From the IMG/VR virus record IMGVR_UViG_2898615884_000001, positions 20,097 through 84,096 of that record: a stretch of DNA of 64,000 bases; one strand, written 5' to 3'. A program made the position numbers and the translations under genes. Positions 23,436 through 48,899 of this stretch are shown here, one piece after another. Position 1 is the stretch's first letter; each line of letters opens with the position of its first letter. Source of the DNA: a virus. Taxonomy: Duplodnaviria > Caudoviricetes. The notes beneath the pieces were generated by a model. It was given only the letters and a program-made list of their open reading frames with translations, did not search any database and was not told the origin of the DNA.

Positions 23436-24137
23436 TTACACGCCAGCATCCCTCAGGATTCTCCCGACCGTTGCGATGCCGCGTCCGACCTCCCGCGCGA
23501 TTGCAGGATGGGTGCGTCCTTCCCGACGGAGGGCGACGATCCGGGAACGCTCGTCGTCCGAGAGGCGCGTCTGCCGCAGTCCGCGTGAGCGCCGAGCTTC
23601 CTTCTGGCGCCGGTTGCTCCGTTCGTTCTCGCATGTCCGGCAGCGGTGCACCTCACGCCCCTGCTGGTGTACTACCACCAGGTTGTCGCCTTCCTTTGCA
23701 TGGCCTCTAGGGCAGTGGGTCTTACGCGGAGGTCGGTAGGCGCGGCCGCGAGCGACCGCGTCTCGCACGTTCTCCACGACCGTTCCCGGATAGAGGTGGG
23801 CGGGATTGACACAGGGCGGGGTGTCACAGTGATGGAGGATCCATATGCCGTCTGGGATTGGCCCGCGCTCGCGTCGCCATGCTTCTCGATGTGCGAGGTG
23901 CTTGCTCTTCCAGCGTCCGTAGCCCTTCGGGTCGGCTTTGCCTGTCCAGAGCCAACATCCGTAGTCGTGCGTCTTCTCGACCTGGCTCCAGAAGTCGTCG
24001 ACGAACCTGGGGGCGATCTCGCGTTCCTCGACCGGGGTGTGGTCGAGCCAGTAGCGATAGCACCGGCTGCACATCCCGCGCGTTAGCTTTCCGCCTGTGC
24101 CACATCCTGGGGTTGAGCAAATACGGTCCTGGGTCAT
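23436..24137 (-). CDS. HNH endonuclease with C-terminal HTH
   Basis: CWLWTG...LAHR...ILHHCDTPPCVNPAHL...N; HCPRGH; terminal HTH. Confidence 0.9.
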   Translation of the reverse strand: MTQDRICSTPGCGTGGKLTRGMCSRCYRYWLDHTPVEEREIAPRFVDDFWSQVEKTHDYGCWLWTGKADPKGYGRWKSKHLAHREAWRRERGPIPDGIWILHHCDTPPCVNPAHLYPGTVVENVRDAVARGRAYRPPRKTHCPRGHAKEGDNLVVVHQQGREVHRCRTCENERSNRRQKEARRSRGLRQTRLSDDERSRIVALRREGRTHPAIAREVGRGIATVGRILRDAGV

Positions 24138-25324
24138 GGTGCTCCGGTGATCGTCTGCTCGTGCATCCGCTCGCGCAGATGCTCGGGCGTGTGGTGGGTG
24201 TGCTGGTCGGCTGGTTCAGGTTCCCACCGGCCGGGGAGGGCGGGGGGTCGTTTGGCAAGGCGGGCGGCTTCGGACTCGGCGGCGATCTGGGCGAGGTGCT
24301 TCCTCGCGGCGGCGATGGTTTGGGCGACGGAGGGGCGGGGCCCGTCATGTTCGGGTTGCCGGTCGGGCGTGGCGGCGGCGAGCGCTTCGGCGACCGAGCG
24401 GCTGTCGGGCAGCGCGGGCCCGGTCGGGGTGCGGTCGTCGTACGGGTCGTCGTCGTCGTCCGGCGCGGTCGTGGTGGCGGTCGAGTGGAGCTGGACGGCC
24501 TCGACGATGTCGAGCAGATCGGTTTTGGGTGACCCGTCGGGGTGGACGGTCATCGACTCCATGTACTTCACGAGGTCCACGACTCGCGTGCCCGCGCGCC
24601 CCCGCACGACCTCGATCACGGCGGCGGCTTCCTCGTCGGTCAGTCCGTAGCGCTCGTGAAGCCAGCGGGTGCCTTGCCGGTCTCGCGCGCGCGTCGACTG
24701 ACTGATCGGTGTATCTGGTCGGTGGACCTGATCGGTGGGCGGACATGCTGCATGTCCGGTTGAGGCGTCAGGATGTCCGGTTGAGGTTCGCGTTTTGTCC
24801 GGTTGAGAATCCTCATCCGGACACTCATAGGTGTCCGGATGAGGCGCGGTCTCAACCGGACGTTCTTGGGTGTCCGCTTGAGACGGTTCGGCGGGCAGCG
24901 CTTCGGCCGCCATCTCGGGAAGTTCGCAGTCTCCCCACGCGGGCGCCAGGATCTCGGCGAGCCGCGCGAACACTGCGGCCGGGAACGTGGCGATGTAGAC
25001 GCTGGCGCGGGTCGTGCCGTCGCCGTTGCGGCCGCCGCGCTGCACGCACATCAGCCAACCGCCGGCGATCGCCTGGTCGAGATGCCTGCGCAGCGTCCGC
25101 TCCGTACCGCCCCGCGCGAGGACGAACCGGTGATACCCGGGGCGGCCCTGGGTGCCGTCGGGGTTCATGTACAGCGCGAGGACGCACAGGGTGTACCGGA
25201 CCTTCTCGGGCAGGTCGAGGCCAGCGATGTGCAGTGCCTTCTGCCAGATGAAGACTCCCCGGGCGCCGAGCAGCGCGGCCGGTACGGGTTCCGGCGCCGG
25301 AGCGGCACGCGGACTTTCGGGCAT
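24134..25324 (-). CDS. Replication initiator 1 (N-terminal winged helix, internal iterons)
   Basis: LCVLALYMNPDG...RPG...TERTLRRHLDQAIAGGWL; repeat-coded linker. Confidence 0.75.
   Translation of the reverse strand: MPESPRAAPAPEPVPAALLGARGVFIWQKALHIAGLDLPEKVRYTLCVLALYMNPDGTQGRPGYHRFVLARGGTERTLRRHLDQAIAGGWLMCVQRGGRNGDGTTRASVYIATFPAAVFARLAEILAPAWGDCELPEMAAEALPAEPSQADTQERPVETAPHPDTYECPDEDSQPDKTRTSTGHPDASTGHAACPPTDQVHRPDTPISQSTRARDRQGTRWLHERYGLTDEEAAAVIEVVRGRAGTRVVDLVKYMESMTVHPDGSPKTDLLDIVEAVQLHSTATTTAPDDDDDPYDDRTPTGPALPDSRSVAEALAAATPDRQPEHDGPRPSVAQTIAAARKHLAQIAAESEAARLAKRPPALPGRWEPEPADQHTHHTPEHLRERMHEQTITGAP
24753..24882. repeat. Iteron cluster (putative origin 1): TGTCCG(G/C)(T/A)TGAG x7
   Basis: Copies at 24753, 24774, 24796, 24832, 24871 (direct) and 24812, 24851 (inverted). 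Confidence 0.75.
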
Positions 25325-25449
25325 GCGAGGGACTCCCCAGGTCGAGGCAGGGGTGGGGGAAGCGACGACCCGGGGAGCGGGCGTCGGATGGGACGGGCCT
25401 ACGGGGGCCGGAGGATCAGGCGGGAGCGCCGCCGTCGGGCAACGGCATG

Positions 25450-25854
25450 TCAGGCGTCGGAGTCGGTTTCCGCCGCGCGCTCTTCCTCAGCGATCTCGGC
25501 GCCGGCCTTGATGAGGCGGGGCCGGTGGATCATCGTGTTGGTCGGCCGCTTGGCCTTGCCGGCGAGGCAGGGACCGCTCTCCACTTTGCAGCTGGGGCAC
25601 GGCAGGGTCAGCGCACGCGCGCGGATGCGGGCCTTGCGCTCTTCCCAGGCGGCGTCGGCGCGGTCGATGAGTTCCTGCGGCGGTCGTTCCGGGAGTTCCG
25701 CGCCGGGGCGGCGCATGAAGTAGGCCCAGAGCGCCTCGACGAGCTGGCTGCGGGTCGTGCCCATGGCCTCGGCGATGAGTTCGCCGGGCTCCCAGTTGTC
25801 GTCCGAGAGGGTGACGGACCGGTGTTGGCGACCGGGTTGGGGCTGTCTGGGCAC
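25450..25854 (-). CDS. Ribbon-helix-helix-like regulator with C-terminal zinc finger
   Basis: HRSVTLSDDNW...AEAMGTTRSQLVEALWAYF; CPSC...C...H..R. Confidence 0.65.
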   Translation of the reverse strand: MPRQPQPGRQHRSVTLSDDNWEPGELIAEAMGTTRSQLVEALWAYFMRRPGAELPERPPQELIDRADAAWEERKARIRARALTLPCPSCKVESGPCLAGKAKRPTNTMIHRPRLIKAGAEIAEEERAAETDSDA

Positions 25855-25869
25855 GAACCGGAGTTTCTC

Positions 25870-25955
25870 AGGTCCACGTGTGCTTATCAACGCGCTGCCT
25901 TTCCGTGCGGTGAGTTGAGGTCCACGTGGACCTAAGTTAAGGTCCACGTGGACCT
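25870..25955. promoter_or_regulatory. Operator palindromes AGGTCCACGTGGACCT
   Basis: Perfect 16-bp palindromes at 25918-25933 and 25940-25955, partial copy at 25870-25880, between divergent genes. Confidence 0.8.
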
Positions 25956-25987
25956 AATCGCAACCCCGACATGCCAAGGGAGATCAG

Positions 25988-26794
25988 ATGCCCCGCACCC
26001 TCGTTGCCGCCGCCCCCGGCCCGGCGCGTCTCGACATCACCGTCCCTTTCGGACACGTCAAGATCGCCGCCGCGCCCGGCTGCGCCACCGCCACCCTGAC
26101 CCTGACCGCGACCACCACCGACCCCGCGCTCGCCGACCTCATCGACCGCGCCACCCTCCACACCACCGACCACGGCCTCGTCGTCGCCGTCCCCAAACTC
26201 CCCGGCACCGCCACCATCCGCACCAACGGCAACTTCGGCATCCAGGTCCAGGCCAACCACGGCAGCGGCACCTTCATCGCGGGCGACTACCACGGCGCGA
26301 ACGTCATCAACGGCCAGCACATCCAGCCCGGGGCCCCGCCCCGCGCGGTATCCGGGGACATCGAGGTCGTCGCGCTCGTACCGCCCGGCAGCGACATCGA
26401 GGTCGACGGGAACGCCGCCGACCTGAGCGCCAAGGGCCGCCTCGGCTCTGTCACCGCCCACGCCAGTTCGGGGGACGTGGACGTGGACACCGCCGACACC
26501 CTGACCGTCCGCACGACGTCTGGTGACGTCCATGGCGCCGAGGTCACCGGCCGGACCGACATCACCACCACCGCCGGCGACATCAGCATCGCTAGGTTCG
26601 GCGGCACGGGCGACTTCGTCACATCCTCGGGAGACGTCACCGTCGCCGCGATTCAGCGGGGTAACGTCCGCGCCCGCACCTCAACCGGGGACATCCGCGT
26701 CACTGCCGCGCCTGGTATCGCCGAGGGGTTGACGGTCTGGGCCCGGAGCAGCGTGGGGTGTATCCGCGTTCCGGACGGGGCGGCTGCGGGCTGA
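25988..26794 (+). CDS. DUF4097-like beta-strand repeat protein
   Basis: Repeated xTxSGDVx units (ASSGDVDV, TTSGDVHG, TTAGDISI, TSSGDVTV, TSTGDIRV). Confidence 0.8.
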   Translation: MPRTLVAAAPGPARLDITVPFGHVKIAAAPGCATATLTLTATTTDPALADLIDRATLHTTDHGLVVAVPKLPGTATIRTNGNFGIQVQANHGSGTFIAGDYHGANVINGQHIQPGAPPRAVSGDIEVVALVPPGSDIEVDGNAADLSAKGRLGSVTAHASSGDVDVDTADTLTVRTTSGDVHGAEVTGRTDITTTAGDISIARFGGTGDFVTSSGDVTVAAIQRGNVRARTSTGDIRVTAAPGIAEGLTVWARSSVGCIRVPDGAAAG

Positions 26795-26844
26795 CCTAGG
26801 CGTTCTGCGTTTTCTCACGTCGTTGCGGATTTCTTGGAGGACTT

Positions 26845-28218
26845 GTGCGGGATACCGCAGAGCAGGCTCCCGCCGGGGCCGAGGCCGACCCGCCACCCGC
26901 CCCACCCCCCGAACACCACAACCCCGCGCCCGCGGAGGACATCGAGCGGACGCCACAGCCGGCCGAGGACGCGCCCCGTCCCGCGCAGGTGGTCGCCGGA
27001 CCCTCGGCAGCGATGGCCGCCGAGGTCGCGACCGCCGTGCCCGCCGCGCTGTTCCACGCCGGGGGTTGGATCGGTCTGGCCGCCGGCGCGGCCGCCGTGG
27101 TCGGGACGGGCGCGGCCGGGGTCGCCGGGCGCCGCCGGGTGGGTACTTCAGGGCGGGCGTGGACGCGGACCCGGACGTGGTCGACGGGCGGCCGGTCGAG
27201 CGCGGCGAAGATGCGGATGCCCGGCACAGGCTCGACGCGAGCGAGTGGGAGCCGGACGCCGCAGTCGTTCGGACGCTCACCCGCCAAGGGCGGCGCCACG
27301 GGCGGCCGGGCCGCTGGCATGCGCGCGGGCGGGGTCGCGGGACGGGCAAGGGCCGGGCGGCTCGGATCCGCGGCACGCCGCGCCACGGCCAGCCCAGCGG
27401 TGAGCGGCCCCGCCCGAGCAGCCCGCCGCGCCACCGCCGCGACCGGCCGAGCCGCGCGCTCGGGATCCCGGAGCACCCGACGCGGCATGGACCACGCGAC
27501 GACCGCCGCCATCCGGAACGCCCGCGCCGCCCGCGCCGCACACCGCGCCGTCGCCGGCGGCGGCACCGGACGCGACGCCGCACGCGCCGCACGCGCATCC
27601 CTGAAGGATTCCCACGCCCACCCCACCCGGATCCGGTGGCGGCGCCTCGCCGGGGCGGGCCTGTGGAGCGCGGCGGCCTGGACCTACGGGCGGAGCTACA
27701 CCGCGAGCCGGACACTCGCCCGGCGGGCGATGGCACGCCTACGCGGCCAGGACCCGGCGGACACCGACGCCGAGCGCGACCAGCCGCGGATCGAAACAAA
27801 AGTGAACCGGCCGACCGACCCGGCGGCCAACACCAGCAGAGGAGAAGACATGACCCGACGTGAGAGCGGAGGTGGCGTGCCGTCGTTCGTCGCAACGGCG
27901 CAGGAGCATGCCGAGTCCCTCGCCCGGTACGAGCCGCCGCCCGGCGCGGGCGGGATGGTGCAGATGTACCACGACATCGAGATGCTGCCCGACGCGCTGG
28001 CGTGGATCGCCCAAGGGTTCGAGCGGATGGCCACACGGTGCCGTAAGGAACTGCCATTGCACCCCGCGATCAGTGAGCTGGTCGTTGAGCTAGCGAAGAC
28101 CCAGACCCGCATGGCGTCGGTCGCGGCGGAGATCAAGCCCGCGATCACCAAACTGCACGAGGAGGACCTGAAGCGCCACGAAGCGCCGCGTCCCAGCGAA
28201 GAGCGGTGGAACGTCTGA
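26845..28218 (+). CDS. TraA-like plasmid transfer protein (TM segment, Arg/Gly-rich linker, conserved C-terminal domain)
   Basis: SD GGAGGA before GTG; C-terminus LHEEDLKRHEAPRPSEERWNV; TGATG-coupled to traB. Confidence 0.6.
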   Translation: MRDTAEQAPAGAEADPPPAPPPEHHNPAPAEDIERTPQPAEDAPRPAQVVAGPSAAMAAEVATAVPAALFHAGGWIGLAAGAAAVVGTGAAGVAGRRRVGTSGRAWTRTRTWSTGGRSSAAKMRMPGTGSTRASGSRTPQSFGRSPAKGGATGGRAAGMRAGGVAGRARAGRLGSAARRATASPAVSGPARAARRATAATGRAARSGSRSTRRGMDHATTAAIRNARAARAAHRAVAGGGTGRDAARAARASLKDSHAHPTRIRWRRLAGAGLWSAAAWTYGRSYTASRTLARRAMARLRGQDPADTDAERDQPRIETKVNRPTDPAANTSRGEDMTRRESGGGVPSFVATAQEHAESLARYEPPPGAGGMVQMYHDIEMLPDALAWIAQGFERMATRCRKELPLHPAISELVVELAKTQTRMASVAAEIKPAITKLHEEDLKRHEAPRPSEERWNV

Positions 28219-30425
28219 TGGGCGGCGTGGATTGGCGGTGGCGGCACGGGACGGTGTCCGGGCCCTTGCACGCGACGATCGCGCTGGCGACCGCCTACGA
28301 AGTCGGGACGCTGCCCGTCCTGGACGTCTCCCCGGAATGGGTCCTGATCGGCGGCGCGACCGCGGCCGGGGTGACGAGCTGGCGCGCGGCCCACGACGGC
28401 CGCTCCTGGCTCGGCCTCGGCTACCGGATCGCAGGCATCAGCGGCAGCACCCTCTGGCTGGCGCAGGCCGTCACGACCGGGTGGACGGCCACGCTCGGGT
28501 GGACGCTCGCGGCGGGCGCGGTCACCGCCGCCGGGCTTGCGCGCCCGATCCGCGCCCGCGACCGCGTCGTCGCCGAACGGCACGCCGCACAGGAAGCCGC
28601 GGCGTCCGTAGCCGCCGTGGACGCGGCCGAGCAGGAACGCTTGACGGGCATCGCCGGGGAGTGGGTCACCCGGATCGAGCGGGTGACCCAAATCGTGCTG
28701 CGCCCCCTCGACCCCCGCACCGGGAAGCGGCCACCAGTGCAGCAAGTCGTCGTCGCCGTCGAGCACTGGATGTTCCCCGGCCCCGGCGGTGTCGAGCGGT
28801 GCACCGGCTACACCCTGGAACTGGTCCTCCCGACCACGGGCGTGACGTGGCAGACGCTCTCCAATTACCAGGACAACCTCGCCGCGGCCGCCGACCTGCC
28901 CCAGGGGTGCGGGGTCGAGATCGGGCCGGGCAGGTCACGGCGCCGCGCGCTCATCGAGGTGTCCATCGTCGATGCGCTCCGCGACGACATCGCCCTCCCA
29001 CTGCCCACCGAACCCCGCACGATCAACAACCCGATCCCCGTCGGAGTGGTCCGCAACGGCGCGCAGGCGGACGTGCCGCTGCGCTACAGCTGCGCCGTCC
29101 TGGTCGGCGCGACCGGGTCGGGGAAGAGCAACGAGCTGCAGACGATCGTGGCCGGGCTGCTGTCCTGCCATGACGTGCTGGTCCTGGTGATCGACTACAA
29201 CGGCGGCGGCGTCGCGTTGCCGTGGCTGTCGCCCTGGGTCGACGGGACGATCGCCCGGTCCCCGATCCTGTGGGTGGCCGACAACGAACACGAGGCCATC
29301 ATGATGTGCGACTGGCTGATCGCCGCGATCGAGCACCGCAAACGGGCCTACCACGCCGCGAACCAGGCCCGTGACGACGACAAGCTCGCCGCAACCCCCG
29401 CCACCCCGCAGCTGGTGCTGGTCACCGACGAAGCGGGCGCGACTGGCCGCGAGGTCACCAAACGGATCGCGCAGATCTCCGACCGCGGACGCGCGGCGGC
29501 GGTGCGGACGGTGACGTGCGCGCTGCGGGCGCTGTCGGAGTACATCCCGACCGAGGTCCTCGCCCAGGCGCAGGTCCGCATCGGCATGAAGGTCAACGAC
29601 CGCAAGGAGCTGGGCTACCTCTACGACTGGGCGGGGGGCCGGGGCGGGCCGTCGCCGGAGGACGCGCCGCACACCGGCTACGGGCATGTGCGGTCGGGGC
29701 AGGAGCCGCCGCGGGTGTTCAAGGGGTATCGGACGTCGCCGTCGATGATCCGTGCGGTGGCGGTGGCGCAGGATGCGTGGCGGCCGGAGCTGGATGAGGT
29801 GACGTTGCGGATGTCGGCGGAGTGGCAGCGGGTGTTCGAGGAGCGGTGGCAGCGCTCGGCGCATCTGCTCGCGGCCGCCGGTGGACGAATGCCCGTCCCG
29901 TCGGCGGGTGGTGGAAGCCCTGAGCGGCGGGAGCGGCAGGCCCCGACGGGGCGGGGTGCGCTCCCGCCGACGCCCCCGGACGGACCGGACGCGGGGTCGA
30001 AGTTCGCCGGGCTGAACGACGCGCTCGCCGACCTGGACGCCGCCGCCGAACGGCTCCGCAACGCCACCCCGGACACGCCCGCCGGGCCGCGCGACGACGC
30101 CGCCGACGCCGCCGCGTTCGAGGCGATCGTCGCCTACGAGGTCGTCGTCCCCGAACTCGTCGTGCGCGTCCTCGCTGCGATGGGCTCCGCCGAGCGGATG
30201 CACACCCGGCAGATCGCCGAGAAGATCGGCAGCCGCGCCGAGTCGCTCGGGGGGCTGCTGTCCCAGCTCGACATCCGGCCGCTCAAGTCGGACTTCACGG
30301 TGGACGGGCGCCGCGGCCGCGGGTACGAGCGCGCGGAGGTCGAGGCGGCCGCCGAGCGGATCCGGTCGGGTGAGCTGGTGCCGCCGGAGGAGGTCGCGCG
30401 GTGGCGCCCGGACGCGCCGGCCTGA
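28218..30425 (+). CDS. traB: FtsK/SpoIIIE-like conjugative DNA translocase TraB
   Basis: N-terminal TM helices, Walker A GATGSGKS, Walker B LVLVTDE, GRAAAV, C-terminal winged helix. Confidence 0.88.
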   Translation: MGGVDWRWRHGTVSGPLHATIALATAYEVGTLPVLDVSPEWVLIGGATAAGVTSWRAAHDGRSWLGLGYRIAGISGSTLWLAQAVTTGWTATLGWTLAAGAVTAAGLARPIRARDRVVAERHAAQEAAASVAAVDAAEQERLTGIAGEWVTRIERVTQIVLRPLDPRTGKRPPVQQVVVAVEHWMFPGPGGVERCTGYTLELVLPTTGVTWQTLSNYQDNLAAAADLPQGCGVEIGPGRSRRRALIEVSIVDALRDDIALPLPTEPRTINNPIPVGVVRNGAQADVPLRYSCAVLVGATGSGKSNELQTIVAGLLSCHDVLVLVIDYNGGGVALPWLSPWVDGTIARSPILWVADNEHEAIMMCDWLIAAIEHRKRAYHAANQARDDDKLAATPATPQLVLVTDEAGATGREVTKRIAQISDRGRAAAVRTVTCALRALSEYIPTEVLAQAQVRIGMKVNDRKELGYLYDWAGGRGGPSPEDAPHTGYGHVRSGQEPPRVFKGYRTSPSMIRAVAVAQDAWRPELDEVTLRMSAEWQRVFEERWQRSAHLLAAAGGRMPVPSAGGGSPERRERQAPTGRGALPPTPPDGPDAGSKFAGLNDALADLDAAAERLRNATPDTPAGPRDDAADAAAFEAIVAYEVVVPELVVRVLAAMGSAERMHTRQIAEKIGSRAESLGGLLSQLDIRPLKSDFTVDGRRGRGYERAEVEAAAERIRSGELVPPEEVARWRPDAPA

Positions 30426-30631
30426 CCCCCACACCCCCTCCCACACCCGGGGTGTGGGAGGGGGTGTGTCAGGGGTGTGGGACCCACACCCACCCCCACA
30501 CCCCCCACAGCCCGCTGACCTGCGTAAACCACACCCCCACACCCCCCACACCCCTCCGTGCGAGGGGCCCCTTCCCCGGGCCAGGGGACCGCGCACACCC
30601 CCCGGCCGGGAGGGGTGTGGGGGGTGTGGGA
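30426..30631. repeat. clt-like cis-acting transfer locus (CCACACC repeats)
   Basis: 11 exact CCACACC copies (7 forward, 4 reverse) plus near matches, directly after traB; includes a near-perfect palindrome at 30430-30468. Confidence 0.7.
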
Positions 30632-30650
30632 GACCGAGAGGACACACACG

Positions 30651-31532
30651 ATGAGCACGCAGAAACGCCCCGGCCTGATCTGGGCGTGCGCGGTCCTGAC
30701 CATCGCAGCCGCCAACCAGCTCCTCTGGAACCTGTGGCACGCCTTCGACACCGGCATGCCGCACCCGCTGGCCGTCGCGACCGGCGCAGTGCCCGTGCTG
30801 CTCGCGCTCGGCACCTCCGCGCTCGCGGCCAGGGTCCGGTGCGGCAACGTGCAGCGGACCCTGACGTACGGCGTGATGCTCGCGGCGATCGGGATCTCGA
30901 TCCTGGCGCAGTACGACCTGCTGATGCACTGGATGGGGAGCAAGGCGGTCGCGGTGTTGTTCCCGACCGTGGGCGACCTGGCGACGCTGATCGCTCTGCA
31001 CGTGTTGATCGCCGACCCGGTCCCGGTGCGGGTGGCGGCACCGGTCCGTACGAAGGAGAAGACCCGTACGACGACGGTCCGTACGGCGCAGCCGGTGATC
31101 TGTGAGAGGTCGATCGGGACGCCGTACGTACGGGCGCCGCAGGGCGTTCTGCGGGCCGTACGGAACGAGCAGTACGTGCCGGAGCGTACGGGCGAAGAGA
31201 CCCGTACGCCGGAGCCGCGTACGCCTTCCGGCGAGCCCCGTACGGCCGAACACGCGGCCCGTACGCGCGCCGTGGTGTCCGCCCGTACGACCCGTACGGA
31301 CCAGGTCAGCGCACCCGTACGGGGCGTACGGGAAGGCCGCGCGCACTGGGTCGAGGTGCTGGCCGACGAGATCCGTACGGCCCGTACGGAAGGCCGTACG
31401 TGGGAACCGGCGTACGTCGAGCTGGAGGCCCGTACGGGGTGGGGCCGGTCGTGGTGCGAGAAGACCGTACGGGCCGCGCGCGAGGCGGCCGAGGAACGTA
31501 CGGGCACCCGTACGGGCACCGACGACGCCTAG
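30651..31532 (+). CDS. Spd/DUF2637-like membrane protein with repeat linker and C-terminal HTH
   Basis: Four N-terminal TM segments, Arg-Thr repeat linker, AYVELEARTGWGRSWCEKTVR. Confidence 0.7.
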   Translation: MSTQKRPGLIWACAVLTIAAANQLLWNLWHAFDTGMPHPLAVATGAVPVLLALGTSALAARVRCGNVQRTLTYGVMLAAIGISILAQYDLLMHWMGSKAVAVLFPTVGDLATLIALHVLIADPVPVRVAAPVRTKEKTRTTTVRTAQPVICERSIGTPYVRAPQGVLRAVRNEQYVPERTGEETRTPEPRTPSGEPRTAEHAARTRAVVSARTTRTDQVSAPVRGVREGRAHWVEVLADEIRTARTEGRTWEPAYVELEARTGWGRSWCEKTVRAAREAAEERTGTRTGTDDA

Positions 31533-31549
31533 CCAAACGGGGCCGTACG
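31047..31549. repeat. Dense array of palindromic CGTACG sites
   Basis: 24 copies counted by eye in about 500 bp, mostly as CCGTACG. Confidence 0.85.
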
Positions 31550-31561
31550 AGGCGGCCCCGT
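31537..31561 (+). other. Intergenic hairpin
   Basis: ACGGGGCCG-N7-CGGCCCCGT. Confidence 0.5.
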
Positions 31562-31585
31562 ACACACCAAGCGAAGGAGAAGGCA

Positions 31586-31951
31586 GTGCCGACGATCATC
31601 ACCTTGCCGGTCGAGATCTCAGAGGACGTCGTCCGCGCGGCGGCGCAGGGCCGAGTCCGGCAGTGGGTCGGGCCGGAGATCGCCGAGGACGTCGTACGCG
31701 CCGTCTTGGCCGACGTCCTGGGAGAGGAGAGCGACGGCCAGCTGCCCGAGCAGTCGAGGCCGGACGCGGACGAGGACGCCGTGGCGGTGTTGATGCGCAA
31801 GTACCTCGGAGTGGACCCGGCGACCGTGAGCGTGCGGAAGGTCCGGGCGGACCTGGGCGGCGCTCGGCACGACCGAGCGGTGCGCGTGAAGGACCTGTGG
31901 ACGGCGAGGTACGCGGCGGCGTTCGGCGGCCGCGCGACCGTACCGGCCTGA
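31586..31951 (+). CDS. Small protein with C-terminal HTH (Spd-like)
   Basis: SD AAGGAG; VSVRKVRADLGGARHDRAVRVKDLW. Confidence 0.6.
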   Translation: MPTIITLPVEISEDVVRAAAQGRVRQWVGPEIAEDVVRAVLADVLGEESDGQLPEQSRPDADEDAVAVLMRKYLGVDPATVSVRKVRADLGGARHDRAVRVKDLWTARYAAAFGGRATVPA

Positions 31952-32009
31952 ATCTCTGAACGGACCGGCCGTCGAGCCGGTGGAACCGATCATCGAAAGG
32001 ACAGGAACC

Positions 32010-32282
32010 ATGCCCCCCACAACCCAGCAGCCGGCCGCTTGGCCGGAGGGCGTCATCGCCCGGTACCTCACCGTCGGCGGCGCGACGGTCGATCTGATGC
32101 GCAGCCGGGCCGGGATCACGGCGGTCTGCCGCGGCTGCCCCGTCGCGCACGCCACGCGGGCGTTCGAGAGGGCGGGGTCGGTCCGGCAGGACGGCGGCAA
32201 GCGGGCGACGGAGCAGGCGCAGGAGTGGGCGCAGACGCATGCGGAGCGGTGCCGCGCCATGCCCCGCCCGGACAGCGAGTGA
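32010..32282 (+). CDS. Small Cys/His mobile-element protein
   Basis: WPEGVIARYLTVGGATVD...CRGC...WAQTHAERCRAMP. Confidence 0.65.
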   Translation: MPPTTQQPAAWPEGVIARYLTVGGATVDLMRSRAGITAVCRGCPVAHATRAFERAGSVRQDGGKRATEQAQEWAQTHAERCRAMPRPDSE

Positions 32283-32286
32283 CGTC

Positions 32287-32718
32287 GTGCCCGCGAAGAC
32301 GCTCGACATCCGCGCCTACACACCCGCCACCGCGCCACCCTGGGCCGCCGAGATCGTCACCGCGATCCGGGGAGGCGACCTCGCCAAGGGCAGCCGCCTG
32401 TTCCGCGAGGCAGCCTCGACGTCCGGTATCGAGCGCGCGGTCTACGCGGTCGCGGCGGTGGTCGAACCCGGCGCCGGTCAGCTCACGGTCGGCCCGGGGC
32501 CGCTCGTGTACGGCAACCCGCTGCGGACCGGCTACTGCTGGCGCTGCGGGACGTGCCTGGCCACCTTCCGCCGGGGCGGCCCGGCGCCTACCGCGGGCGT
32601 GAACTACAAGACCGCCCAGAGCGCGCGCGGCGCCGCAGTGAAGCACGACCGCGAGGCGCACGGGGGTCGCTCGACGGTGCACGAGCTGAGCCCGAGGGGG
32701 CGTGACCTGCGGTGCTAG
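32287..32718 (+). CDS. Hypothetical zinc-binding protein
   Basis: WRCGTC...KHDREAH; overlaps the next start. Confidence 0.5.
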   Translation: MPAKTLDIRAYTPATAPPWAAEIVTAIRGGDLAKGSRLFREAASTSGIERAVYAVAAVVEPGAGQLTVGPGPLVYGNPLRTGYCWRCGTCLATFRRGGPAPTAGVNYKTAQSARGAAVKHDREAHGGRSTVHELSPRGRDLRC

Positions 32719-33614
32719 GGAAGACGCACGCGCTGAGCGGCGCGATGATGTTCGGGGTGCTGGCGGTCCCGGCCGCGCCGGTCGCGCACCTGTCCCTCCC
32801 CGAGCTCGCCCTCGGCACCGTCGTGTGTGCGGGTGCGGCGATGCTCCCGGACATCGATCACCGCGAGTCGCATGTGGCGCGGACGCTCGGGCCGCTGTCC
32901 CGGGGGCTCGCGTGCGCGGTCGCGTGGGTCGCCGGCGGGCACCGCAGGGGTGTGCACTCGCTCGTCGGGGTGGCGGTGGTCGCGCTGCTGGCGTTCCTCG
33001 GCGCCGCGCTCCGCTCGGGGAGCACGAGCTGGGCGGTGGCCGGGATCGCCCTGGCCGCCGTCCTCGCGGGCTCCGGGCTGCTGGCCGGGATGGCGTGGCC
33101 GGGTGACCGGCGGCGCGGCCGACGCGTCTACCCCGAACGCTGGCACGGACCCGCGGCCGCCGGGGTGTTCGGCGTCGTCGCCCTGGCGCTCGCCGTCGGC
33201 GCGGCCGTGGACCCGCACGCGACCGGGACCGGCGTCCTCGCGGTCCTGCTCGTCCTCACCCTTGCGTCGGCGGCGAGGGTCTTCCACATCCGCCGGTGGA
33301 CGCGCCTGCGGACCGAGGTGGACGACCTGCTGCCGATCCCGGTCACGTTCGTCCTACTCGTCGGCGACACGAACCTCCGCGTGGTGCCCTTCGCGGTCGT
33401 CCTCGGCGTCATCGTCCACATCGCCGGAGACATGGCCACCGTCGGCGGCTGCCCGCTCGGATGGCCGTGGTCGCTGACCGCGCGGGGGCCTCGCGCGTTC
33501 AGGACGAACTCGCCCATCGAGCGGGGGCCGGTGACGTGGGCGTGCATGGTGATCTTTGCGGTGACCGTGTTCTGGAACAGCGGGATCGCGAACGCCATCA
33601 CCAGGCACGGGTAG
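32712..33614 (+). CDS. YdjM-like membrane metal-dependent hydrolase
   Basis: KTH, LPDIDH, HRRGVHS, HIAGD motifs; multiple TM helices. Confidence 0.88.
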   Translation: MLGKTHALSGAMMFGVLAVPAAPVAHLSLPELALGTVVCAGAAMLPDIDHRESHVARTLGPLSRGLACAVAWVAGGHRRGVHSLVGVAVVALLAFLGAALRSGSTSWAVAGIALAAVLAGSGLLAGMAWPGDRRRGRRVYPERWHGPAAAGVFGVVALALAVGAAVDPHATGTGVLAVLLVLTLASAARVFHIRRWTRLRTEVDDLLPIPVTFVLLVGDTNLRVVPFAVVLGVIVHIAGDMATVGGCPLGWPWSLTARGPRAFRTNSPIERGPVTWACMVIFAVTVFWNSGIANAITRHG

Positions 33615-33627
33615 CGGCGCGGCGGCG

Positions 33628-33658
33628 ACGGCCCCGAACCACACCGGTTCGGGGCCGT
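33628..33658. terminator. Hairpin between convergent operons
   Basis: ACGGCCCCGAACC-ACACC-GGTTCGGGGCCGT, 13-bp stem. Confidence 0.65.
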
Positions 33659-33679
33659 TCGCATGCTCGGCGTCAGCGC

Positions 33680-34581: not shown

Positions 34582-34802
34582 GTCTTGGTGTCCTCCTGGA
34601 GGTCGGTGCGGGCCCCCTGGCCAGGTCGTTGATGGGCGAGGATCGTGGCCGGCCTCCAGACCGGTGAACGGCCGAACTGCTTGTCCTCGGGTGGGAGTTC
34701 GCCGCGGGCTCGGTAGCGGCGCGCGGAGGCGTACTTGATTCCGTAGTGGTCGGCGACGTCTTGGAGTGTCCAGTAGTCGGCGTCGGGGTCGGGCTTGGTC
34801 AC
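34578..34802 (-). CDS. HTH regulator (AlpA/excisionase-like)
   Basis: YWTLQDVADHYGIKYASARRYRARGELPPED..FGRSPVW. Confidence 0.75.
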   Translation of the reverse strand: MTKPDPDADYWTLQDVADHYGIKYASARRYRARGELPPEDKQFGRSPVWRPATILAHQRPGQGARTDLQEDTKT

Positions 34803-34885
34803 GGGTGCGGGCTCCCATCGTCTACTTGATGGGGACAAAGTCTAGGCCGTGGGTTGTGGCGGTCCCTCAAAGCTACTTCGTCTCT

Positions 34886-39793: not shown

Positions 39794-40219
39794 CTAGGCG
39801 GGGTGGGGAGGCTGGTCGAGGGCGGCGTGCAGAAGCCCGGCCCCGATCGCGTGATGCAGAACGCCGTGGACGCTCGTGGACACCTCCACATCCTGGTCGA
39901 ACGGGTGGACCCACCGCAGTGCCCGGCCGGGCTGGACGGCGGCTGGCTCGCCGGTGAGTTCGACCCGGTACAGCTCGGTGAGGACGAGCGCCCCGTCGAT
40001 CCCGGACACCGCCTCGAACCGGTCGACGTACGTGAGGCCCGCCAGGCCGGTACCGAGTTCGGCGGCCAGTTCCCGGTCCAACGTCGCCTCGTGGCTCTCA
40101 CCCTCGACCGCGGGGCCGCCCGGCATGCAGTAAATGTCAGGGTGCCGGGACGCGGTGATGGTGAGGACGCAGCCGTCCCGGACGACGAGCGCCGAGACCT
40201 TCCGGTAGACGTCGGTCAC
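39794..40219 (-). CDS. NUDIX hydrolase (slightly degenerate box)
   Basis: MPGGPAVEGESHEATLDRELAAELG. Confidence 0.8.
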   Translation of the reverse strand: MTDVYRKVSALVVRDGCVLTITASRHPDIYCMPGGPAVEGESHEATLDRELAAELGTGLAGLTYVDRFEAVSGIDGALVLTELYRVELTGEPAAVQPGRALRWVHPFDQDVEVSTSVHGVLHHAIGAGLLHAALDQPPHPA

Positions 40220-41822: not shown

Positions 41823-42343
41823 AGCAGCTCCAGTTGTCCGGTGGGGTGCGCGGTGGCGCGCTTGGGCTTCTTGGGCTCGGCCGCGCGGCGGAGGGACGGT
41901 CGGGGGGCGGGTCGTGCGGCGGGTGCGGGGATCCCGGCGTCCCGCCGCGCGACCTGGACGGCGATCCGCTCCGCACGCCGCTCGGCATACGGCTGCGCGC
42001 GAACCTGGCGGAGGATCATCTCGGCAGCGCGCCACGGGTCGGCCTCACGGCGACAATCCGCACACCGGCCGACGACGTTCTCGTGATGGCAGAGCTGCAC
42101 ACCGTCCGGCTCCGTCATCGCGCGGGCGTTGTGGTTGTTGACCCTGGCCTGGATAGACGCGGGCCGCTCCTCCGGGATCCGGAACGGGTTGTCAGCCTCC
42201 TGCGCACGGGCCATCGCGTCACGAAGCTGAGCCGTGGTCATCCCCTTGCGGCACTCGGGCCCAATCCGGAACGCACGGGATGCCGGGTCGGTGAGCGGCT
42301 TTCCGCATTCGGTGCAGGTGGGGTCGACCACGCGGATGCTCAT
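41819..42343 (-). CDS. DUF6011-like protein
   Basis: CTECGKPLTDPASRAFRIGPEC. Confidence 0.72.
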   Translation of the reverse strand: MSIRVVDPTCTECGKPLTDPASRAFRIGPECRKGMTTAQLRDAMARAQEADNPFRIPEERPASIQARVNNHNARAMTEPDGVQLCHHENVVGRCADCRREADPWRAAEMILRQVRAQPYAERRAERIAVQVARRDAGIPAPAARPAPRPSLRRAAEPKKPKRATAHPTGQLELL

Positions 42344-42573
42344 GCCGGGCCCGCGCCGTTCTTGAGCGCCAGGCCGTGCTGGATGAGGGCGGTGTGCACG
42401 TCATCCAGCGACTTGGTCCCGAAGTTGCGGATGTCGAGCAGATCGAACGCATCGCACGCCGCGAGGTCGCCGATGGTGCGGATCCCCTCACGCATCAGCG
42501 CGTTGTAGGCGCGGGGCGACAGGTTCAGCAACGCGATCGGGTCGCCCGGCTGGAGGGTGCGGGTGGTGGCCAT
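42340..42573 (-). CDS. Stand-alone RNA polymerase alpha-CTD-like protein
   Basis: PIALLNLSPRAYNALMREGIRTIGDL...DLLDIRNFGTKSLDDV...GLAL. Confidence 0.85.
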   Translation of the reverse strand: MATTRTLQPGDPIALLNLSPRAYNALMREGIRTIGDLAACDAFDLLDIRNFGTKSLDDVHTALIQHGLALKNGAGPA

Positions 42574-46039: not shown

Positions 46040-46502
46040 CGGCGGCCTCCCGCGCGTCCAGCCACCGCACGACGGTCGCCCCGCCATGCAGATGCACCCG
46101 CTCGATCGACTCCAGCCCCCGATCCCAAAACACGATCGAGGGATGCTCACCGCGCCACCGGACCGACGCGGTCCCGTCCGGCCAGAGCACGCCGTCCGCG
46201 ACGAGGCCGGCGCCGGAGACGCCGGTGACGTCCCGGTGGCGGACGAGCTGGAACCGGCGGGGCTCGCCGCTCGCGTCCTCCGTGGCGAGCTGGGCGAGCG
46301 TACGAGCGGCGCGGGCGTGGGCCCGCTGCTCGATCTCGGGCGCGACCACGTTCAACACCTGGGCGGCGAGGCGCCGGTAGTGGTCGGCGGTCGTCCGGTG
46401 GAGTTTGCCCCAGGTCTGGGTGACGCCGTCGCTGTCGCAGATCGCGGCGGCGGCCAGCTCGACCAGGTCGAGGGCGTCGTCGGCGGGCGTCTGCTCAGCC
46501 AC
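46032..46502 (-). CDS. Conserved actinophage hypothetical protein
   Basis: RRFQLVRHRDVTGVSGAG.VADGV.WPDG...HGG. Confidence 0.65.
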   Translation of the reverse strand: MAEQTPADDALDLVELAAAAICDSDGVTQTWGKLHRTTADHYRRLAAQVLNVVAPEIEQRAHARAARTLAQLATEDASGEPRRFQLVRHRDVTGVSGAGLVADGVLWPDGTASVRWRGEHPSIVFWDRGLESIERVHLHGGATVVRWLDAREAAGA

Positions 46503-47715
46503 GGGACACCTCCGCCCCCTCCACAGCGGGGCGTGCGGCGGCGACCAGATCCCACGGGATCCCCTGCTCTCCCGCAGACGTCACCAAGCGCAGCTCGCGG
46601 GCGTCCCTGTCGCACCGGACCAGCAGGCCAGTGACGGATTCGTCGGCCATGGTCAGCACCTCGACGCGGTGACCGACCAGCGCCAGGTACGGGATGCAGG
46701 GGCTGTCGACCGGCTCATCCGCCTCCGCCCCGTCGAGGGCGCGGACGGCTTCGGTCACGGCCTCGCGGACACCATGCGCATCAGCCGCAGGCGCACGCCC
46801 CGTAGGCATCCCTGCGTGGTGGAGAGCGTCCACGAGCATGTAGGCGTGCGACCCAGCGGCAGCGATATCGAGCTGGTCCGGCTCCTTGCCGCGTTCGAGG
46901 CACCAGTAGGCGATGAGCGCGGCCTCGATGACGGCGTGGAGACGGTCGCCGTTCACCTGCTCGGCGAGCCGGCCCCGGTGGGCCTCGACCTTCTTCAGCT
47001 CGCGGCGCTGCTCGCCCATGTCGACTTGGAGTTGCGCGTGATCGGCGGCGGCACGATCGAGGGCCTGTCGGTCAGCGGCCGCTTCTTCGCGGAGCCGCTC
47101 CACCTCGGTCTCGGCGTCCGTGAGCGCGGAAGTGACGGCGTTGATGCCGTCCGCCAGGCAGCCCGCCACCTCCATCGCGGCGCGCCCCTGGTCGGTGAGC
47201 GCGTCGTACGCGGCGGCGCGGTCCTCGGCGAACCGGTCCGCCTCGGCGCGGGCGGCGTCGCGCTCGCGTTCGGCCCGCGCGGCGTCGGTGCGGTGCCGCC
47301 CGCCGAGCCGGTGCGCCTCGTCGCGCTCGGCGGCCACGACGGCCAGCAGGGCGCGGAGTTGCTCCTGCTCGGAGTGGACGACTTTCAGCGCAGCAGTAGC
47401 GATCTCGTCCACCGACGTCCGGAGGATCATCGTGCCGCCGATCGCGCTCGCGAGCTGGCGGTGCATCTCCTCGTCGGTCTGTGGCGGGCCTTCGCCCTGG
47501 CCGACGGGCTCGACCACGACAGGCGCCCACTCGATCGGCAGGGTCGTGAAGTAGCTGCGCCCGTCCGGGTTGACGATGGCCACCTGGACGACGCGCGTGG
47601 TGTCGCTGTCGTGGCCCTCGATGCTGCCGCGCTCGATGCGGGCGCCCTTGATGGTGATGTCGGCGATGGTGCCCGGCTTGAGCTCGCTCGCCTTGGGTGT
47701 GGTCGGGTTGGTCAT
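46495..47715 (-). CDS. Coiled-coil hypothetical protein
   Basis: SD CAGGAG, 406 aa, long heptad region. Confidence 0.6.
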   Translation of the reverse strand: MTNPTTPKASELKPGTIADITIKGARIERGSIEGHDSDTTRVVQVAIVNPDGRSYFTTLPIEWAPVVVEPVGQGEGPPQTDEEMHRQLASAIGGTMILRTSVDEIATAALKVVHSEQEQLRALLAVVAAERDEAHRLGGRHRTDAARAERERDAARAEADRFAEDRAAAYDALTDQGRAAMEVAGCLADGINAVTSALTDAETEVERLREEAAADRQALDRAAADHAQLQVDMGEQRRELKKVEAHRGRLAEQVNGDRLHAVIEAALIAYWCLERGKEPDQLDIAAAGSHAYMLVDALHHAGMPTGRAPAADAHGVREAVTEAVRALDGAEADEPVDSPCIPYLALVGHRVEVLTMADESVTGLLVRCDRDARELRLVTSAGEQGIPWDLVAAARPAVEGAEVSRG

Positions 47716-47732
47716 CTCGGTCTCCTGAGGGG

Positions 47733-48899
47733 TCAGCCGGTCTGGTCGGGGGCGACCGCGCGCTCCGCCGCCCACTTGCGCTTCAGGTCAGCGAGCAGCG
47801 GCGCGGCCGCGCGGTAGTCCTCGCCGGAGGTGGTGTCGTACAGCGGCGCGGCCTCGGCCGACTCGACATCCGCGTCGGGTTCGTCGGGTTCGTCCGGGAC
47901 GGCGTGAATGAACAGCGGGGGCTGCGTCGCGGCCGAGTCGCTCGTGGCACCGCCGGGCAGGAAACGCAGTTCCGGGGGCGGCAACTCCTCGCCCGGCTCG
48001 GCGCCTGCGGCCTGTCCCTCAGTCCTGGTCTGGATCGCCCCGACGATGTCCGCGAGATGCCCGCGCTCGACCATCCGCTGGAGGTACGGGATCGGGTTCC
48101 GGATCGGGTCGGCCGCCCGCGCCTTCGCTGCTTCCCATGCGTCGGCGGCCTCGGGGTCAGTCAGTCCGTAGTTCGACGAGAGCCAGCGGAGCGCCTCGCG
48201 CACGCGCGCACGCGCGTAGACCGACTGATCTCCTTCACCTTCTCCACTAGGGGAACCACCGGCAGGTGGAACGGGACGGGACTGGGACGGGACTGGGACG
48301 GGAGGATTCGGGGGCGAATCGGGTACCCGATGAACGACCCGATCGGGTACCCGATAACCCTGCTGGTCAGACGAGGTATCGCTCGCATCGGGTTGAGAGT
48401 TATCCACAGGCGAATCGGACATCGGGTTTGGAGCAACCCGATGCGAACCCGATGGCATACCCGATGAAGCACCCGATGCGCCGCGACCCCCGTTCCCGGG
48501 GCCACCCTTCTGGCAGTAGCGGCACGACGGATCGGTCTTCCCCTTCCCCTCATGCCACCGCCGGTGGTTCCCCAGCTCACCACCGGACGACATCTTCTTC
48601 CGGCCCGCGATCGCCTCGTCCCGGGTCGGGTTCCGGACCGTCCCGTCGGCATCGACAGCCCACTCGTGGAACTGATAGCCGCCCTGTGCCCGCTCCCAGA
48701 ACCCGGCCTTGACGAGTTCCTCTGCCAGCTCGACCTGGCCGCGAGACAGCGCCGGGATCATGTGCTCGGGGATGAACCCGTCGGTTAGCTGGTCGCTGGA
48801 CCAGGATCCGGCCACGGTCCACAACCCCATTGCGGTGAGCGAAGCGGCCCACGTCTTTGAGTGGGAGTGGAGGTGATCGTCCACCTTGAACCAGGTCAC
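47733..48899 (-). CDS. Replication initiator 2 (actinophage WFKVDD type)
   Basis: MTWFKVDD...AMGLWTVAGSWS..QLTDGFIP...LVKAGFW...GYQFHEW; PSQSRPVP linker. Confidence 0.82.
   Translation of the reverse strand: MTWFKVDDHLHSHSKTWAASLTAMGLWTVAGSWSSDQLTDGFIPEHMIPALSRGQVELAEELVKAGFWERAQGGYQFHEWAVDADGTVRNPTRDEAIAGRKKMSSGGELGNHRRWHEGKGKTDPSCRYCQKGGPGNGGRGASGASSGMPSGSHRVAPNPMSDSPVDNSQPDASDTSSDQQGYRVPDRVVHRVPDSPPNPPVPVPSQSRPVPPAGGSPSGEGEGDQSVYARARVREALRWLSSNYGLTDPEAADAWEAAKARAADPIRNPIPYLQRMVERGHLADIVGAIQTRTEGQAAGAEPGEELPPPELRFLPGGATSDSAATQPPLFIHAVPDEPDEPDADVESAEAAPLYDTTSGEDYRAAAPLLADLKRKWAAERAVAPDQTG
48318..48479. repeat. Putative origin 2: ATCGGGT/ACCCGAT iterons around a perfect DnaA box
   Basis: ATCGGGTACCCGAT palindromes at 48318 and 48342, further half-sites to about 48479; TTATCCACA at 48400-48408. 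Confidence 0.75.

Follow-up and report, generated by a model that had tools for sequence, protein, structure and literature searches.

Two candidate lambda-O-type replication modules with a common C-terminal domain in what is best explained as one actinobacterial prophage

Why would one prophage carry two replication initiators? The question is raised by a stretch of 64,000 nucleotides from a tailed virus (Duplodnaviria; Caudoviricetes), which corresponds to positions 20,097 to 84,096 of the IMG/VR record IMGVR_UViG_2898615884_000001. We refer to this whole stretch as the window. An earlier note, made from the letters of the window alone, pointed to two initiator genes with a related C-terminal segment, which we call Rep1 and Rep2, and proposed that one supports lytic growth and the other a low-copy conjugative state. 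The explanation that we favor, with modest confidence, is that two complete lambda-O-type modules for replication came together in this prophage by mosaic recombination, and that each module has an origin inside the initiator gene and a common C-terminal domain that contacts the host. The parts of the two putative modules are as follows:

24134-25324, minus strand: Rep1, an initiator-like protein of 396 amino acids (aa) with an ATG start (from the open reading frame, or ORF; the start is fixed by an alignment of homologues)
24935..25324, minus strand: N-terminal domain of Rep1 (aa 1-130), predicted to be of the winged-helix type and putatively origin-binding (from a structural model and from relatives)
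24752..24884, no strand assigned: iteron array of Rep1, with seven copies of (C)CTCAACCGGACA, of which three are direct repeats 21-22 bp apart and four form two inverted pairs
24479..24706, minus strand: Rep1's copy of the shared domain (aa 207-282), with four helices and a short insertion (from BLASTP, an alignment, and a profile)
47733-48899, minus strand: Rep2, of the actinophage "replication initiation protein" family, 388 aa, with a GTG start (from the ORF and matches to phrog_2447 and phrog_3926)
48495..48899, minus strand: N-terminal domain of Rep2 (aa 1-135), which begins with MTWFKVDD, has a CxxC motif, and is putatively origin-binding (from PHROGs, tblastn, and an alignment)
48318..48478, no strand assigned: iteron array of Rep2, with 11 ATCGGGT cores on both strands, including four direct repeats 11-12 bp apart and two 14-bp palindromes, ATCGGGTACCCGAT
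48024..48230, minus strand: Rep2's copy of the shared domain (aa 224-292; from BLASTP, an alignment, and a profile)

Both genes are intact, as the earlier note had described. The start of Rep2 is supported by homologues that open with MTWFKVDD, and the start of Rep1 by homologues that open with MPE(S/N)PRA. Rep2 matches phrog_2447 (E = 1.9e-27) and phrog_3926 (E = 3.6e-23) and no family in Pfam (at E ≤ 1) or NCBIfam. We used tblastn to compare Rep2 to 50,697 phage records and found similarity in 214 of them, covering only about aa 1-127. None of the 214 covers 80% or more of Rep2, and among the 25 matches listed, all end by residue 127. Invariant columns in the alignment of Rep2 with its homologues are concentrated in aa 1-130, and the shared C-terminal domain is present in nine of the 14 aligned homologues, while the other five have other C-termini. 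Because the phage records cover the N-terminus only, the C-terminal domain appears to be specific to a subset of Rep2-type proteins.

Rep1 has fewer relatives. A search of 5.8 billion proteins yielded eight homologues including Rep1 itself (that is, seven relatives), and there was no match to Rep1 among the 50,697 phage records and no family in Pfam (at E ≤ 1) or NCBIfam. In viral contigs, we found one weak Rep1-related locus (27% identity, E = 8e-7); a search of genome contigs (alignment A4) gave 67 pattern matches, of which none was confirmed. Among PHROGs, Rep1 resembles phrog_391 ("replication initiation O-like"), but weakly (E = 2.7e-5, 25 bits). The AlphaFold2 model of the whole protein is poor (mean pLDDT of 52), and its N-terminal domain, with a winged-helix-like order of helix-helix-helix-strand-strand, is modeled at low confidence (pLDDT of 58-70). 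To extend the family, we collected relatives of the N-terminal domain with phmmer (E = 1.5e-57 down to 1.7e-4) and one round of profile search. Five of the 12 relatives that we scanned have N-termini that match initiator families (E = 1e-18 to 1e-5), namely phrog_1032, phrog_270, and phrog_391, which are annotated as "replication initiation", or phrog_678. Also, in the BLAST-linked group of 34 proteins around Rep1's N-terminal domain, 22 match HTH_36 from Pfam and 23 match phrog_270. We take Rep1 to be a divergent winged-helix phage initiator, less certainly than Rep2. These matches agree with the suggestion in the earlier note that both genes are initiator-like.

What do the two proteins have in common? 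Comparing Rep1 to Rep2 with BLASTP gave one significant segment (residues 212-278 of Rep1 and 230-290 of Rep2; 26/67 identical, or 39%; E = 5e-6), and the N-termini did not align. This is the pattern that had been noticed by eye, and the similarity is statistically significant. From homologues of both proteins, we made an alignment of 16 sequences of the shared segment (alignment A3), which was the basis for a profile and for a predicted fold. Across the 9.16 Mb genome, the profile finds exactly two places, Rep1 and Rep2 (E = 6e-36 and 6.5e-31). Intermediate sequences bridge the two copies: some members of the Rep1 family lack Rep1's 6-residue insertion, and some members of the Rep2 family read like Rep1. 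Folded alone by AlphaFold2 with alignment A3, the domain is predicted to form four helices in about 75 residues (mean pLDDT of 88.3, pTM of 0.76), and within the model of full-length Rep1, it has a pLDDT of 73-86. Its conserved hydrophobic positions are Y22, L24, Y50, M54, and L66.

We did not find a convincing relative of this domain among characterized families. The best hit of the profile to sequences from the PDB had E = 0.12, to unrelated proteins; Foldseek against the PDB and BFVD gave nothing at E ≤ 0.001; and VIA-align against 48,161 chains gave a best Z of 5.5, with no row standing out. Across the 16 members, Pfam gave sub-threshold noise only (TerB in 5/16, with a best E of 9.4e-4, HAMP in three, and ANTAR in two), and PHROGs gave nothing below 0.036. 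Judging from these comparisons, the shared domain is a so far undescribed helical domain, without a relative of known function in the libraries searched.

To see how the domain is distributed, we compared the profile to 1.84 billion representative proteins. We found 93 matches with E ≤ 0.001, of which 59 had E ≤ 1e-10. In nearly all of the strong matches, the protein is 230-480 aa long and the similarity is confined to a single stretch within residues 140-310. In a few short proteins, the domain is near the start instead, and these may be fragments or truncated gene calls. In the order that the host belongs to, the domain is present in 14 of 401 genomes, from 5 of 72 genera. Just two other genomes of the 401 have two matches; in one of these they form a tandem repeat, and in the other they are on two contigs. 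Among 10 loci that encode domain-bearing initiators, no gene is conserved beside them. At G274:C239:34019-40134 (L009/L018), a domain-bearing initiator and two downstream genes occur twice in tandem, 2.9 kb apart and with identical scores; either the genes were truly duplicated or the assembly is at fault.

The domain is found behind many different N-termini. We took the 67 matched proteins that have at least 100 residues before the domain and grouped them by BLAST links between those N-terminal parts. This gave six groups that are not linked to each other, with 34, 16, 9, 4, 2, and 2 proteins. We then built a maximum-likelihood tree from 77 copies of the domain and labeled each by its N-terminal group. 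The tree requires 20 changes of label, as compared to a minimum possible of 5, and the well-supported branches alone force at least nine changes for group 1 (the largest) and at least six for group 2; all of these numbers are rough, given an alignment of 85 columns and a bootstrap that had not converged. For instance, Rep1's domain is sister (support of 100/99) to that of P0008, a hypothetical protein of Actinomadura litoris, in which a domain about 80% identical to that of Rep1 follows an N-terminus that is unrelated. Rep2's domain groups with those of P0013, P0015, and P0134. Because the domains of Rep1 and Rep2 are on different branches of the tree, they are not recent copies of each other. 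By this analysis, and with the caution that such counts call for, the C-terminal domain is a mobile module that has been recombined with at least six N-terminal groups.

The repeats lie between the two domains. Allowing up to one mismatch, all seven matches to TCAACCGGACA in the window are within 24753-24881, with five on one strand and two on the other, and three of the 14-mers in this array are identical. With two mismatches, there are 16 further matches in the window, which are scattered and at the level expected by chance. The array encodes aa 147-191 of Rep1, which separate its N-terminal domain from the shared one, and is the lowest-GC (guanine plus cytosine) part of the gene: its 40-mers have 50-55% GC, which puts them in the bottom 1-5% of the window. 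(The window as a whole has 71% GC.) In Rep2, seven of the 11 exact copies of CATCGGGT in the window are within 48325-48478, as compared to an expectation of 3.4 for the whole window, and 11 of the window's 23 copies of ATCGGGT are within 48318-48477. This array encodes aa 141-194, which is also between the two domains, and sits at the lowest-GC spot of its gene. Neither motif occurs in the other gene's array, so each initiator does have its own iterons. Both arrays are inside the initiator genes, in the part that encodes the linker. Our gene caller cut both genes at these arrays.

To ask if related initiators also have repeats in their linkers, we examined the 360 nucleotides before the domain and asked if any 8-mer was present in at least four copies. 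This was the case at five of nine distinct loci, as compared to 5.8% of 2,000 random windows from the same DNA. The repeated motifs vary with the N-terminal group. A criterion of three copies was dropped, as 34% of the random windows reach three copies. By a lambda-O-type module we mean an N-terminal domain that is related to initiator families, together with at least four internal repeats at low GC. Rep1 and Rep2 both have this combination, although for Rep1 the relationship is weak and comes in part via its relatives, and DNA binding is predicted.

How might such modules work? Each initiator would combine a specific N-terminal DNA-binding domain, a flexible linker whose coding DNA serves as the origin, and the common four-helix C-terminal domain. 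The N-terminal domain would assemble on its own repeats within the gene and open the adjacent low-GC DNA, as in lambda, and the C-terminal domain would then make the contact that recruits the replication machinery. Most probably, the host supplies this machinery, with the replicative helicase as the first candidate partner, because we detected no helicase, primase, polymerase, or loader in the prophage (among 95 window proteins scanned with Pfam and 76 with PHROGs, many of which belong to no family), because there is no conserved neighboring gene, and because the domain was kept while N-terminal domains were exchanged. The apparent lack of a helicase or primase had been noticed in the earlier note as well. 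Swapping of the C-terminal domain would change the specificity for the origin and keep the contact with the host. We infer the function of the origins, the partner of the C-terminal domain, and the history of recombination from these comparisons. As to the host's own helicases, we noticed that its main DnaB homologue (L035 1453-3306, plus strand, on contig 33 of its own genome) has an intein inserted in the P-loop region, and that two further DnaB-like genes are present in the host genome.

Instead of recruiting other proteins, the C-terminal domain could be a self-association or control domain, involved in oligomerization on the repeats, in pairing of origins, or in cross-talk between Rep1 and Rep2. 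We consider this unlikely, but it is one of the two alternatives that survive best. The domain is a small bundle of helices in which hydrophobic positions are conserved, which would suit this role, the best rows of the fold comparison are unrelated peptide-binding or dimerizing helical domains (Z of about 5), and no conserved partner gene is nearby. However, a domain that was purely for oligomerization would be expected to co-evolve with the N-terminal domain, and instead, we see at least 20 swaps, by our rough count, among the six N-terminal groups. Also, lambda-type and DnaD-type initiators oligomerize via their N-terminal winged-helix part and make contacts via their C-terminal part.

If the shared domain does recruit the host's machinery, why are there two modules? 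This depends on what kind of element they are in. Its other relevant features are:

62571..64000, plus strand: tyrosine integrase (Phage_integrase, E = 1.7e-22), the sole integrase detected, at one end of the prophage
61385-61906, plus strand: cI-like gene
60980-61231, minus strand: cro-like helix-turn-helix gene, the first of the early genes
Early genes, minus strand, in order: cro-like, excisionase-like, RecE/RecT-like, WhiB-like, DUF5131, Rep2, DNA methylases, Nudix, PCMT-type methyltransferase
39797-40219: Nudix gene
25988-37250, plus strand: block that includes the FtsK/TraB-like gene
28218..30425, plus strand: FtsK/TraB-like translocase, 735 aa (phrog_31069 over its full length, E = 2e-111), which is part of neither replication module
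25867..25962, no strand assigned: operator-like region between the small regulator and a DUF4097 gene, with perfect palindromes AGGTCCACGTGGACCT at 25918-25933 and 25940-25955 and a degenerate copy at 25870-25885
25450..25854 (longest form 25450-25947), minus strand: small regulator upstream of Rep1 (from the ORF, Pfam, and inspection by eye)
After the plus-strand block, minus strand, in order: small regulator, Rep1, HNH endonuclease, DnaQ-like exonuclease, DNA-binding protein, late genes
11351-12979, minus strand: terminase; the other late genes on this strand encode a Mu-type portal, capsid, tail tube, and tape measure

The window is best explained as covering most of a single temperate tailed phage, roughly 77 kb long, that is integrated in the genome of an actinobacterium with high GC. 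It has one integrase; genes for the tail and for lysis continue for about 13 kb beyond the start of the window (to ~C6:161.2k); and a host gene, for an acyl-CoA dehydrogenase, lies directly after the integrase, about 140 bp past it. A gene call based on frame bias gave 98 genes in the window, and scans with Pfam and PHROGs place the phage genes mostly on the minus strand. We found no tRNA gene and no attachment repeat (the integrase-side flank and the far flank share no word longer than 12 nucleotides), so the limits of the prophage are approximate. Using Pfam, we detected no ParA or ParB partition family among the 95 window proteins and no integrase, recombinase, or transposase in 1-62 kb.

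The N-terminus of the small regulator upstream of Rep1 looks like a ribbon-helix-helix (RHH) domain by eye, and its C-terminus matches Phage_zn_bind_8 from Pfam, under the curated cut-off (E = 1.9e-4). The two 16-bp palindromes are 22 bp apart, and perfect copies are found only here in the window; with up to three mismatches, there are seven matches in the window, as compared to 0.44 expected. The regulator-Rep1 operon and the plus-strand FtsK/TraB-like block diverge from one region of 130 bp, so Rep1 does lie behind a regulator that faces the putative transfer block, as the earlier note had pointed out. The palindrome region is likely a shared operator of the two divergent operons. The FtsK-like protein matches the plasmid_TraB family of NCBIfam at 42 bits (E = 3.8e-11), where the cut-off is 800, and FtsK-like genes of the same PHROG family occur in ordinary Streptomyces phage genomes. 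Of 401 genomes from the family, 31 have the FtsK-like gene paired with a conserved upstream partner (27487-28218 in the window), in contexts that look like prophages or small integrative elements.

We compared this layout to that of a prophage from the same genus (genome G248). In G248, the order is integrase, cro, excisionase, recombination genes, one domain-bearing initiator, more early genes, and a reversed FtsK-like block, which is 48% identical to the window's block over 751 aa. The terminase and portal genes of G248 follow directly after the FtsK block, with no second initiator between them. The single domain-bearing initiator in the 40 kb that we examined is in the early operon, 10 kb from the FtsK block. 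The terminase and portal belong to different families in the two prophages: Terminase_3 and Phage_portal in G248 versus Terminase_6 and Portal_Mu in the window. A Rep1-like gene occurs instead in a phage remnant in another genome (G053), where it is preceded by a small RHH-like regulator. The G053 remnant also contains a homologue of the window gene at 17411-18304 and a tail tube of the Phage_TTP_17 family, which the window's tail tube matches weakly. There is no FtsK-like gene within 20 kb of the RHH-like and Rep1-like pair in G053.

The presence of two modules in one prophage is best explained by mosaic recombination of two phage lineages, and less likely by a designed division of labor between them. 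The segment that runs from the integrase through the FtsK block, with Rep2 in it, would have come from a lineage like that of G248, and the RHH-like regulator, Rep1, and the late genes would have come from the other lineage. The different terminase and portal families of the two prophages fit this history.

Perhaps only one of the two modules works and the other initiator, whichever it is, is a silent or decaying leftover of recombination, in a prophage that may be defective; we judge this to be unlikely, and about as probable as the self-association of the C-terminal domain. The G248 prophage manages with one domain-bearing initiator, our prophage is about 12.6 kb longer than the G248 layout between the FtsK block and the terminase, and the domain is rare in the order, with two matches in just those two other genomes. 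However, neither gene has stop codons or frameshifts, both encode full-length proteins whose starts and domain order are conserved, and both arrays are well preserved, as seen from the three identical 14-mers in Rep1 and the two identical 14-bp palindromes in Rep2.

The earlier note had proposed something more ambitious, in which the prophage leads two lives. Rep2 and its origin would serve lytic growth, while the RHH-controlled Rep1 and its origin, together with the FtsK/TraB-like operon, would support plasmid-like or conjugative replication. It is true that the two initiators are intact and have different repeats, that the RHH-Rep1 operon and the FtsK/TraB-like block diverge from a region with two perfect palindromes, that the FtsK-like protein has its weak match to plasmid TraB, and that Nudix and excisionase-like genes are present, as in conjugative elements of actinomycetes. 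But no Rep1-type gene neighbors the FtsK-like block of G248 or that of any of 10 further contexts, which makes 11 of 11 in all. (In these 10 contexts, no gene with the shared domain is near the FtsK-like gene, within about 18 kb on each side or less at contig ends; some of them look like small integrative elements and one is phage-like.) Conversely, in the G053 phage remnant, the Rep1-like and RHH-like genes occur without an FtsK-like gene. Rep1's relatives match phage initiator families and not plasmid Rep families; we detected neither a partition gene nor a second integrase; the TraB score is far below its cut-off; and FtsK-like genes of this family are found in ordinary phages. We think it improbable that Rep1 is tied to the transfer block or is a low-copy conjugative replicon. 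A more specific form, a phage-conjugative hybrid with two modes, seems slightly less probable again: both initiators would dock on the same host replisome protein, with Rep1 switched on with the FtsK/TraB-like operon for transfer of double-stranded DNA within the mycelium and Rep2 used for lytic growth. A dual lifestyle would be far more remarkable if it were true, but the present evidence is against it. Of the original idea, what holds up is that there are two initiators, each with its own repeats, with a significant C-terminal segment in common; the split into a lytic and a conjugative replicon is not supported.

Finally, the Rep1 region (~13-26 kb) is very unlikely to be a separate small satellite or hitch-hiker that is nested in the prophage and uses its integrase or packaging: it has its own regulator, operator, initiator, and putative origin, it is absent from the G248-type layout, and GC dips slightly at 22-24 kb (to 66%), but the only integrase detected is outside of 1-62 kb, no flanking direct repeats were noticed in a scan of 24000-26100 (which covers one border only), the region is co-linear into the terminase and head genes, and the G053 remnant has Rep1-like and late-gene relatives together.

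Several observations weigh against two lambda-O-type modules of mosaic origin, which is still the explanation that we favor. The direct link of Rep1 to an initiator family is a weak one (25 bits), the model of its N-terminal domain has low confidence, and seven of the 12 nearest relatives that we scanned gave no initiator family. The role of the C-terminal domain is putative, no protein of known function was found to resemble it in sequence or structure, and its net charge ranges from -4 to +5 among members, which is uninformative as to DNA binding. The counts of domain swaps are rough, and two of the nine relative loci have no 8-mer at three or more copies, while two more reach only three. 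The shared operator region of the RHH-Rep1 and FtsK-block operons fits with co-regulation, which favors the idea of the earlier note. The attachment sites were not found, which leaves the limits of the prophage approximate, and at 77 kb and 12.6 kb longer than its G248-type relative, the prophage may be defective. Also, unlike in lambda, no gene for a P-like or DnaC-like loader was detected after either initiator: the next gene encodes an HNH endonuclease for Rep1 and a 406-aa protein of no family for Rep2.

The surroundings of the two genes include other features:

48900..49586, no strand assigned: gap of about 690 bp upstream of Rep2, with low GC, an inverted repeat, and a divergent ORF
49012-49299, plus strand: small divergent ORF of 95 aa within this gap

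The gap includes the point at which GC is lowest in the region (45-47% over 48940-49010) and an inverted repeat of 20 nucleotides (48941-48960 and 48990-49009). In a scan for promoters, a sigma-70-like site at 48978-49005 is directed at the small ORF, and no such site was found for Rep2 or in the operator region of Rep1, using a consensus that fits high-GC actinomycetes poorly. The G248 prophage has a small divergent ORF at the same relative place beside its initiator (18455-18694 in the concatenated coordinates of L032 and L033), and these small ORFs may encode regulators of the replication operon. Directly upstream of the gap, 49587-50612 (minus strand) encodes a DUF5131 protein (E = 1.4e-98). 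On the other side of Rep2, the gene for the 406-aa protein (46495-47715, minus strand) has only a faint SMC-like coiled-coil match. By eye, the first ~60 residues of this protein resemble the start of the gene at 52988-53365 (minus strand), relatives of which are present in G032 and G072. Near Rep1, the HNH endonuclease gene (23436-24137, minus strand) overlaps Rep1's stop codon and encodes an additional C-terminal HTH_38 domain; this protein and another HNH endonuclease (57091-57522, minus strand) both match PHROG 826. Elsewhere in the prophage, a 77-aa early protein (42343-42573, minus strand) matches the C-terminal domain of the alpha subunit of RNA polymerase (PF03118, E = 7e-18) and, given this similarity, may be a phage-made mimic or decoy of that domain. 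In the region of the plus-strand block, 34186-34581 (minus strand) encodes a stand-alone domain like the C-terminal domain of RapZ (PF22740, E = 8e-18).

How do these modules compare to known systems? Neither protein has a Pfam or NCBIfam match to the Rep families of iteron plasmids (Rep_3/RepA/pi), and 2 of 34 relatives have a marginal match to RP-C (E = 0.0051). Actinomycete integrative and conjugative elements replicate with proteins of the RepSA, RepAM, or prim-pol types, and no such family was found in Rep1 or Rep2 with Pfam or NCBIfam. Phage P1 has two replication modes in one temperate phage. Similarly, some temperate mycobacteriophages have RepA and parABS, which give the prophage state a replicon in addition to lytic replication (PMC7157519). 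Such prophages, like those of P1, are extrachromosomal, with parABS and without an integration cassette, whereas the prophage described here has a tyrosine integrase and no partition genes that we could detect.

Small helical C-terminal domains are also found in DnaD-like initiators or organizers (DnaB_2, PF07261) and in RepB of lactococcal theta plasmids (PF06430). Feature scores from the Atlas link the shared domain to DnaD-type and RepB_C-type domains (0.87 and 0.88), which are weak leads. There may also be a resemblance in motifs, with G-L-T followed by Y-L-x-x-M. As for folds, VIA-align to 2i5u, of the DnaD type, gave a Z of 4.6 and a root-mean-square deviation of 3.1 over 60 residues, but this ranked 14th and is within the noise for helical models. 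None of the 16 members of the domain family has a Pfam match to the DnaD or DnaB_2 families at E ≤ 10, and PF07261 at E ≤ 0.001 had no match in any of 151 genomes from the order, among them the host's own; the controls, Bacillus subtilis and Lactococcus lactis, do match.

The N-terminal part of Rep2 is familiar from actinophages: RepA-like initiators of phrog_2447 and phrog_3926, from phages of Arthrobacter, Propionibacterium, Gordonia, and Microbacterium, are 35-46% identical to the first 100-127 residues of Rep2. A pair of Gordonia phage initiators offers a parallel to the combination of Rep1 and Rep2. According to Smug et al. 2023 (PMC10684548, Fig. 5E), these two proteins, which are also from actinophages, have near-identical C-terminal regions of no known domain behind dissimilar, unrelated winged-helix N-termini, a pattern that the authors attribute to recombination in which domains were exchanged. 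The Gordonia initiators are in two closely related phages, whereas Rep1 and Rep2 are in one prophage. The domain described here is probably of another family, as it had no match in the 50,697 phage records.

A further analogy is to lambda. The architecture of Rep1 and Rep2 is like that of O, in which a linker joins an N-terminal domain that binds DNA to a C-terminal domain that makes contacts. The C-terminal domain is unrelated to anything in Pfam or PHROGs, and neither protein matches any Pfam family at E ≤ 1, including that of O (Phage_rep_O). Also, the repeats are shorter than lambda's and, in both arrays, are partly inverted. In lambda, the origin lies within the O gene (PMC7157519). Likewise, the repeats of Rep1 and Rep2 are inside the gene, in the linker-coding part and at the lowest-GC spot.

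How plasmids and phages of Actinobacteria load the helicase is poorly understood, and a small, confidently modeled C-terminal module that is freely swapped, and found only on proteins with the shape of initiators, is a concrete candidate for the contact. Actinobacteria are not known to have a DnaC-type loader. On a bolder reading, which we consider improbable, the shared domain would be the first adaptor recognized in Actinobacteria through which the replicative helicase is loaded by mobile elements. With both genes in one prophage, the pair would be a natural experiment, with two origin specificities and one common module. The two compact candidate replicons, each of about 1.2 kb with the gene and its internal origin, could also serve as vectors for actinomycetes that have few genetic tools. 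Modular phage initiators that exchange domains were already known; what is new here is the combination of candidate internal origins with an undescribed, mobile domain of four predicted helices.

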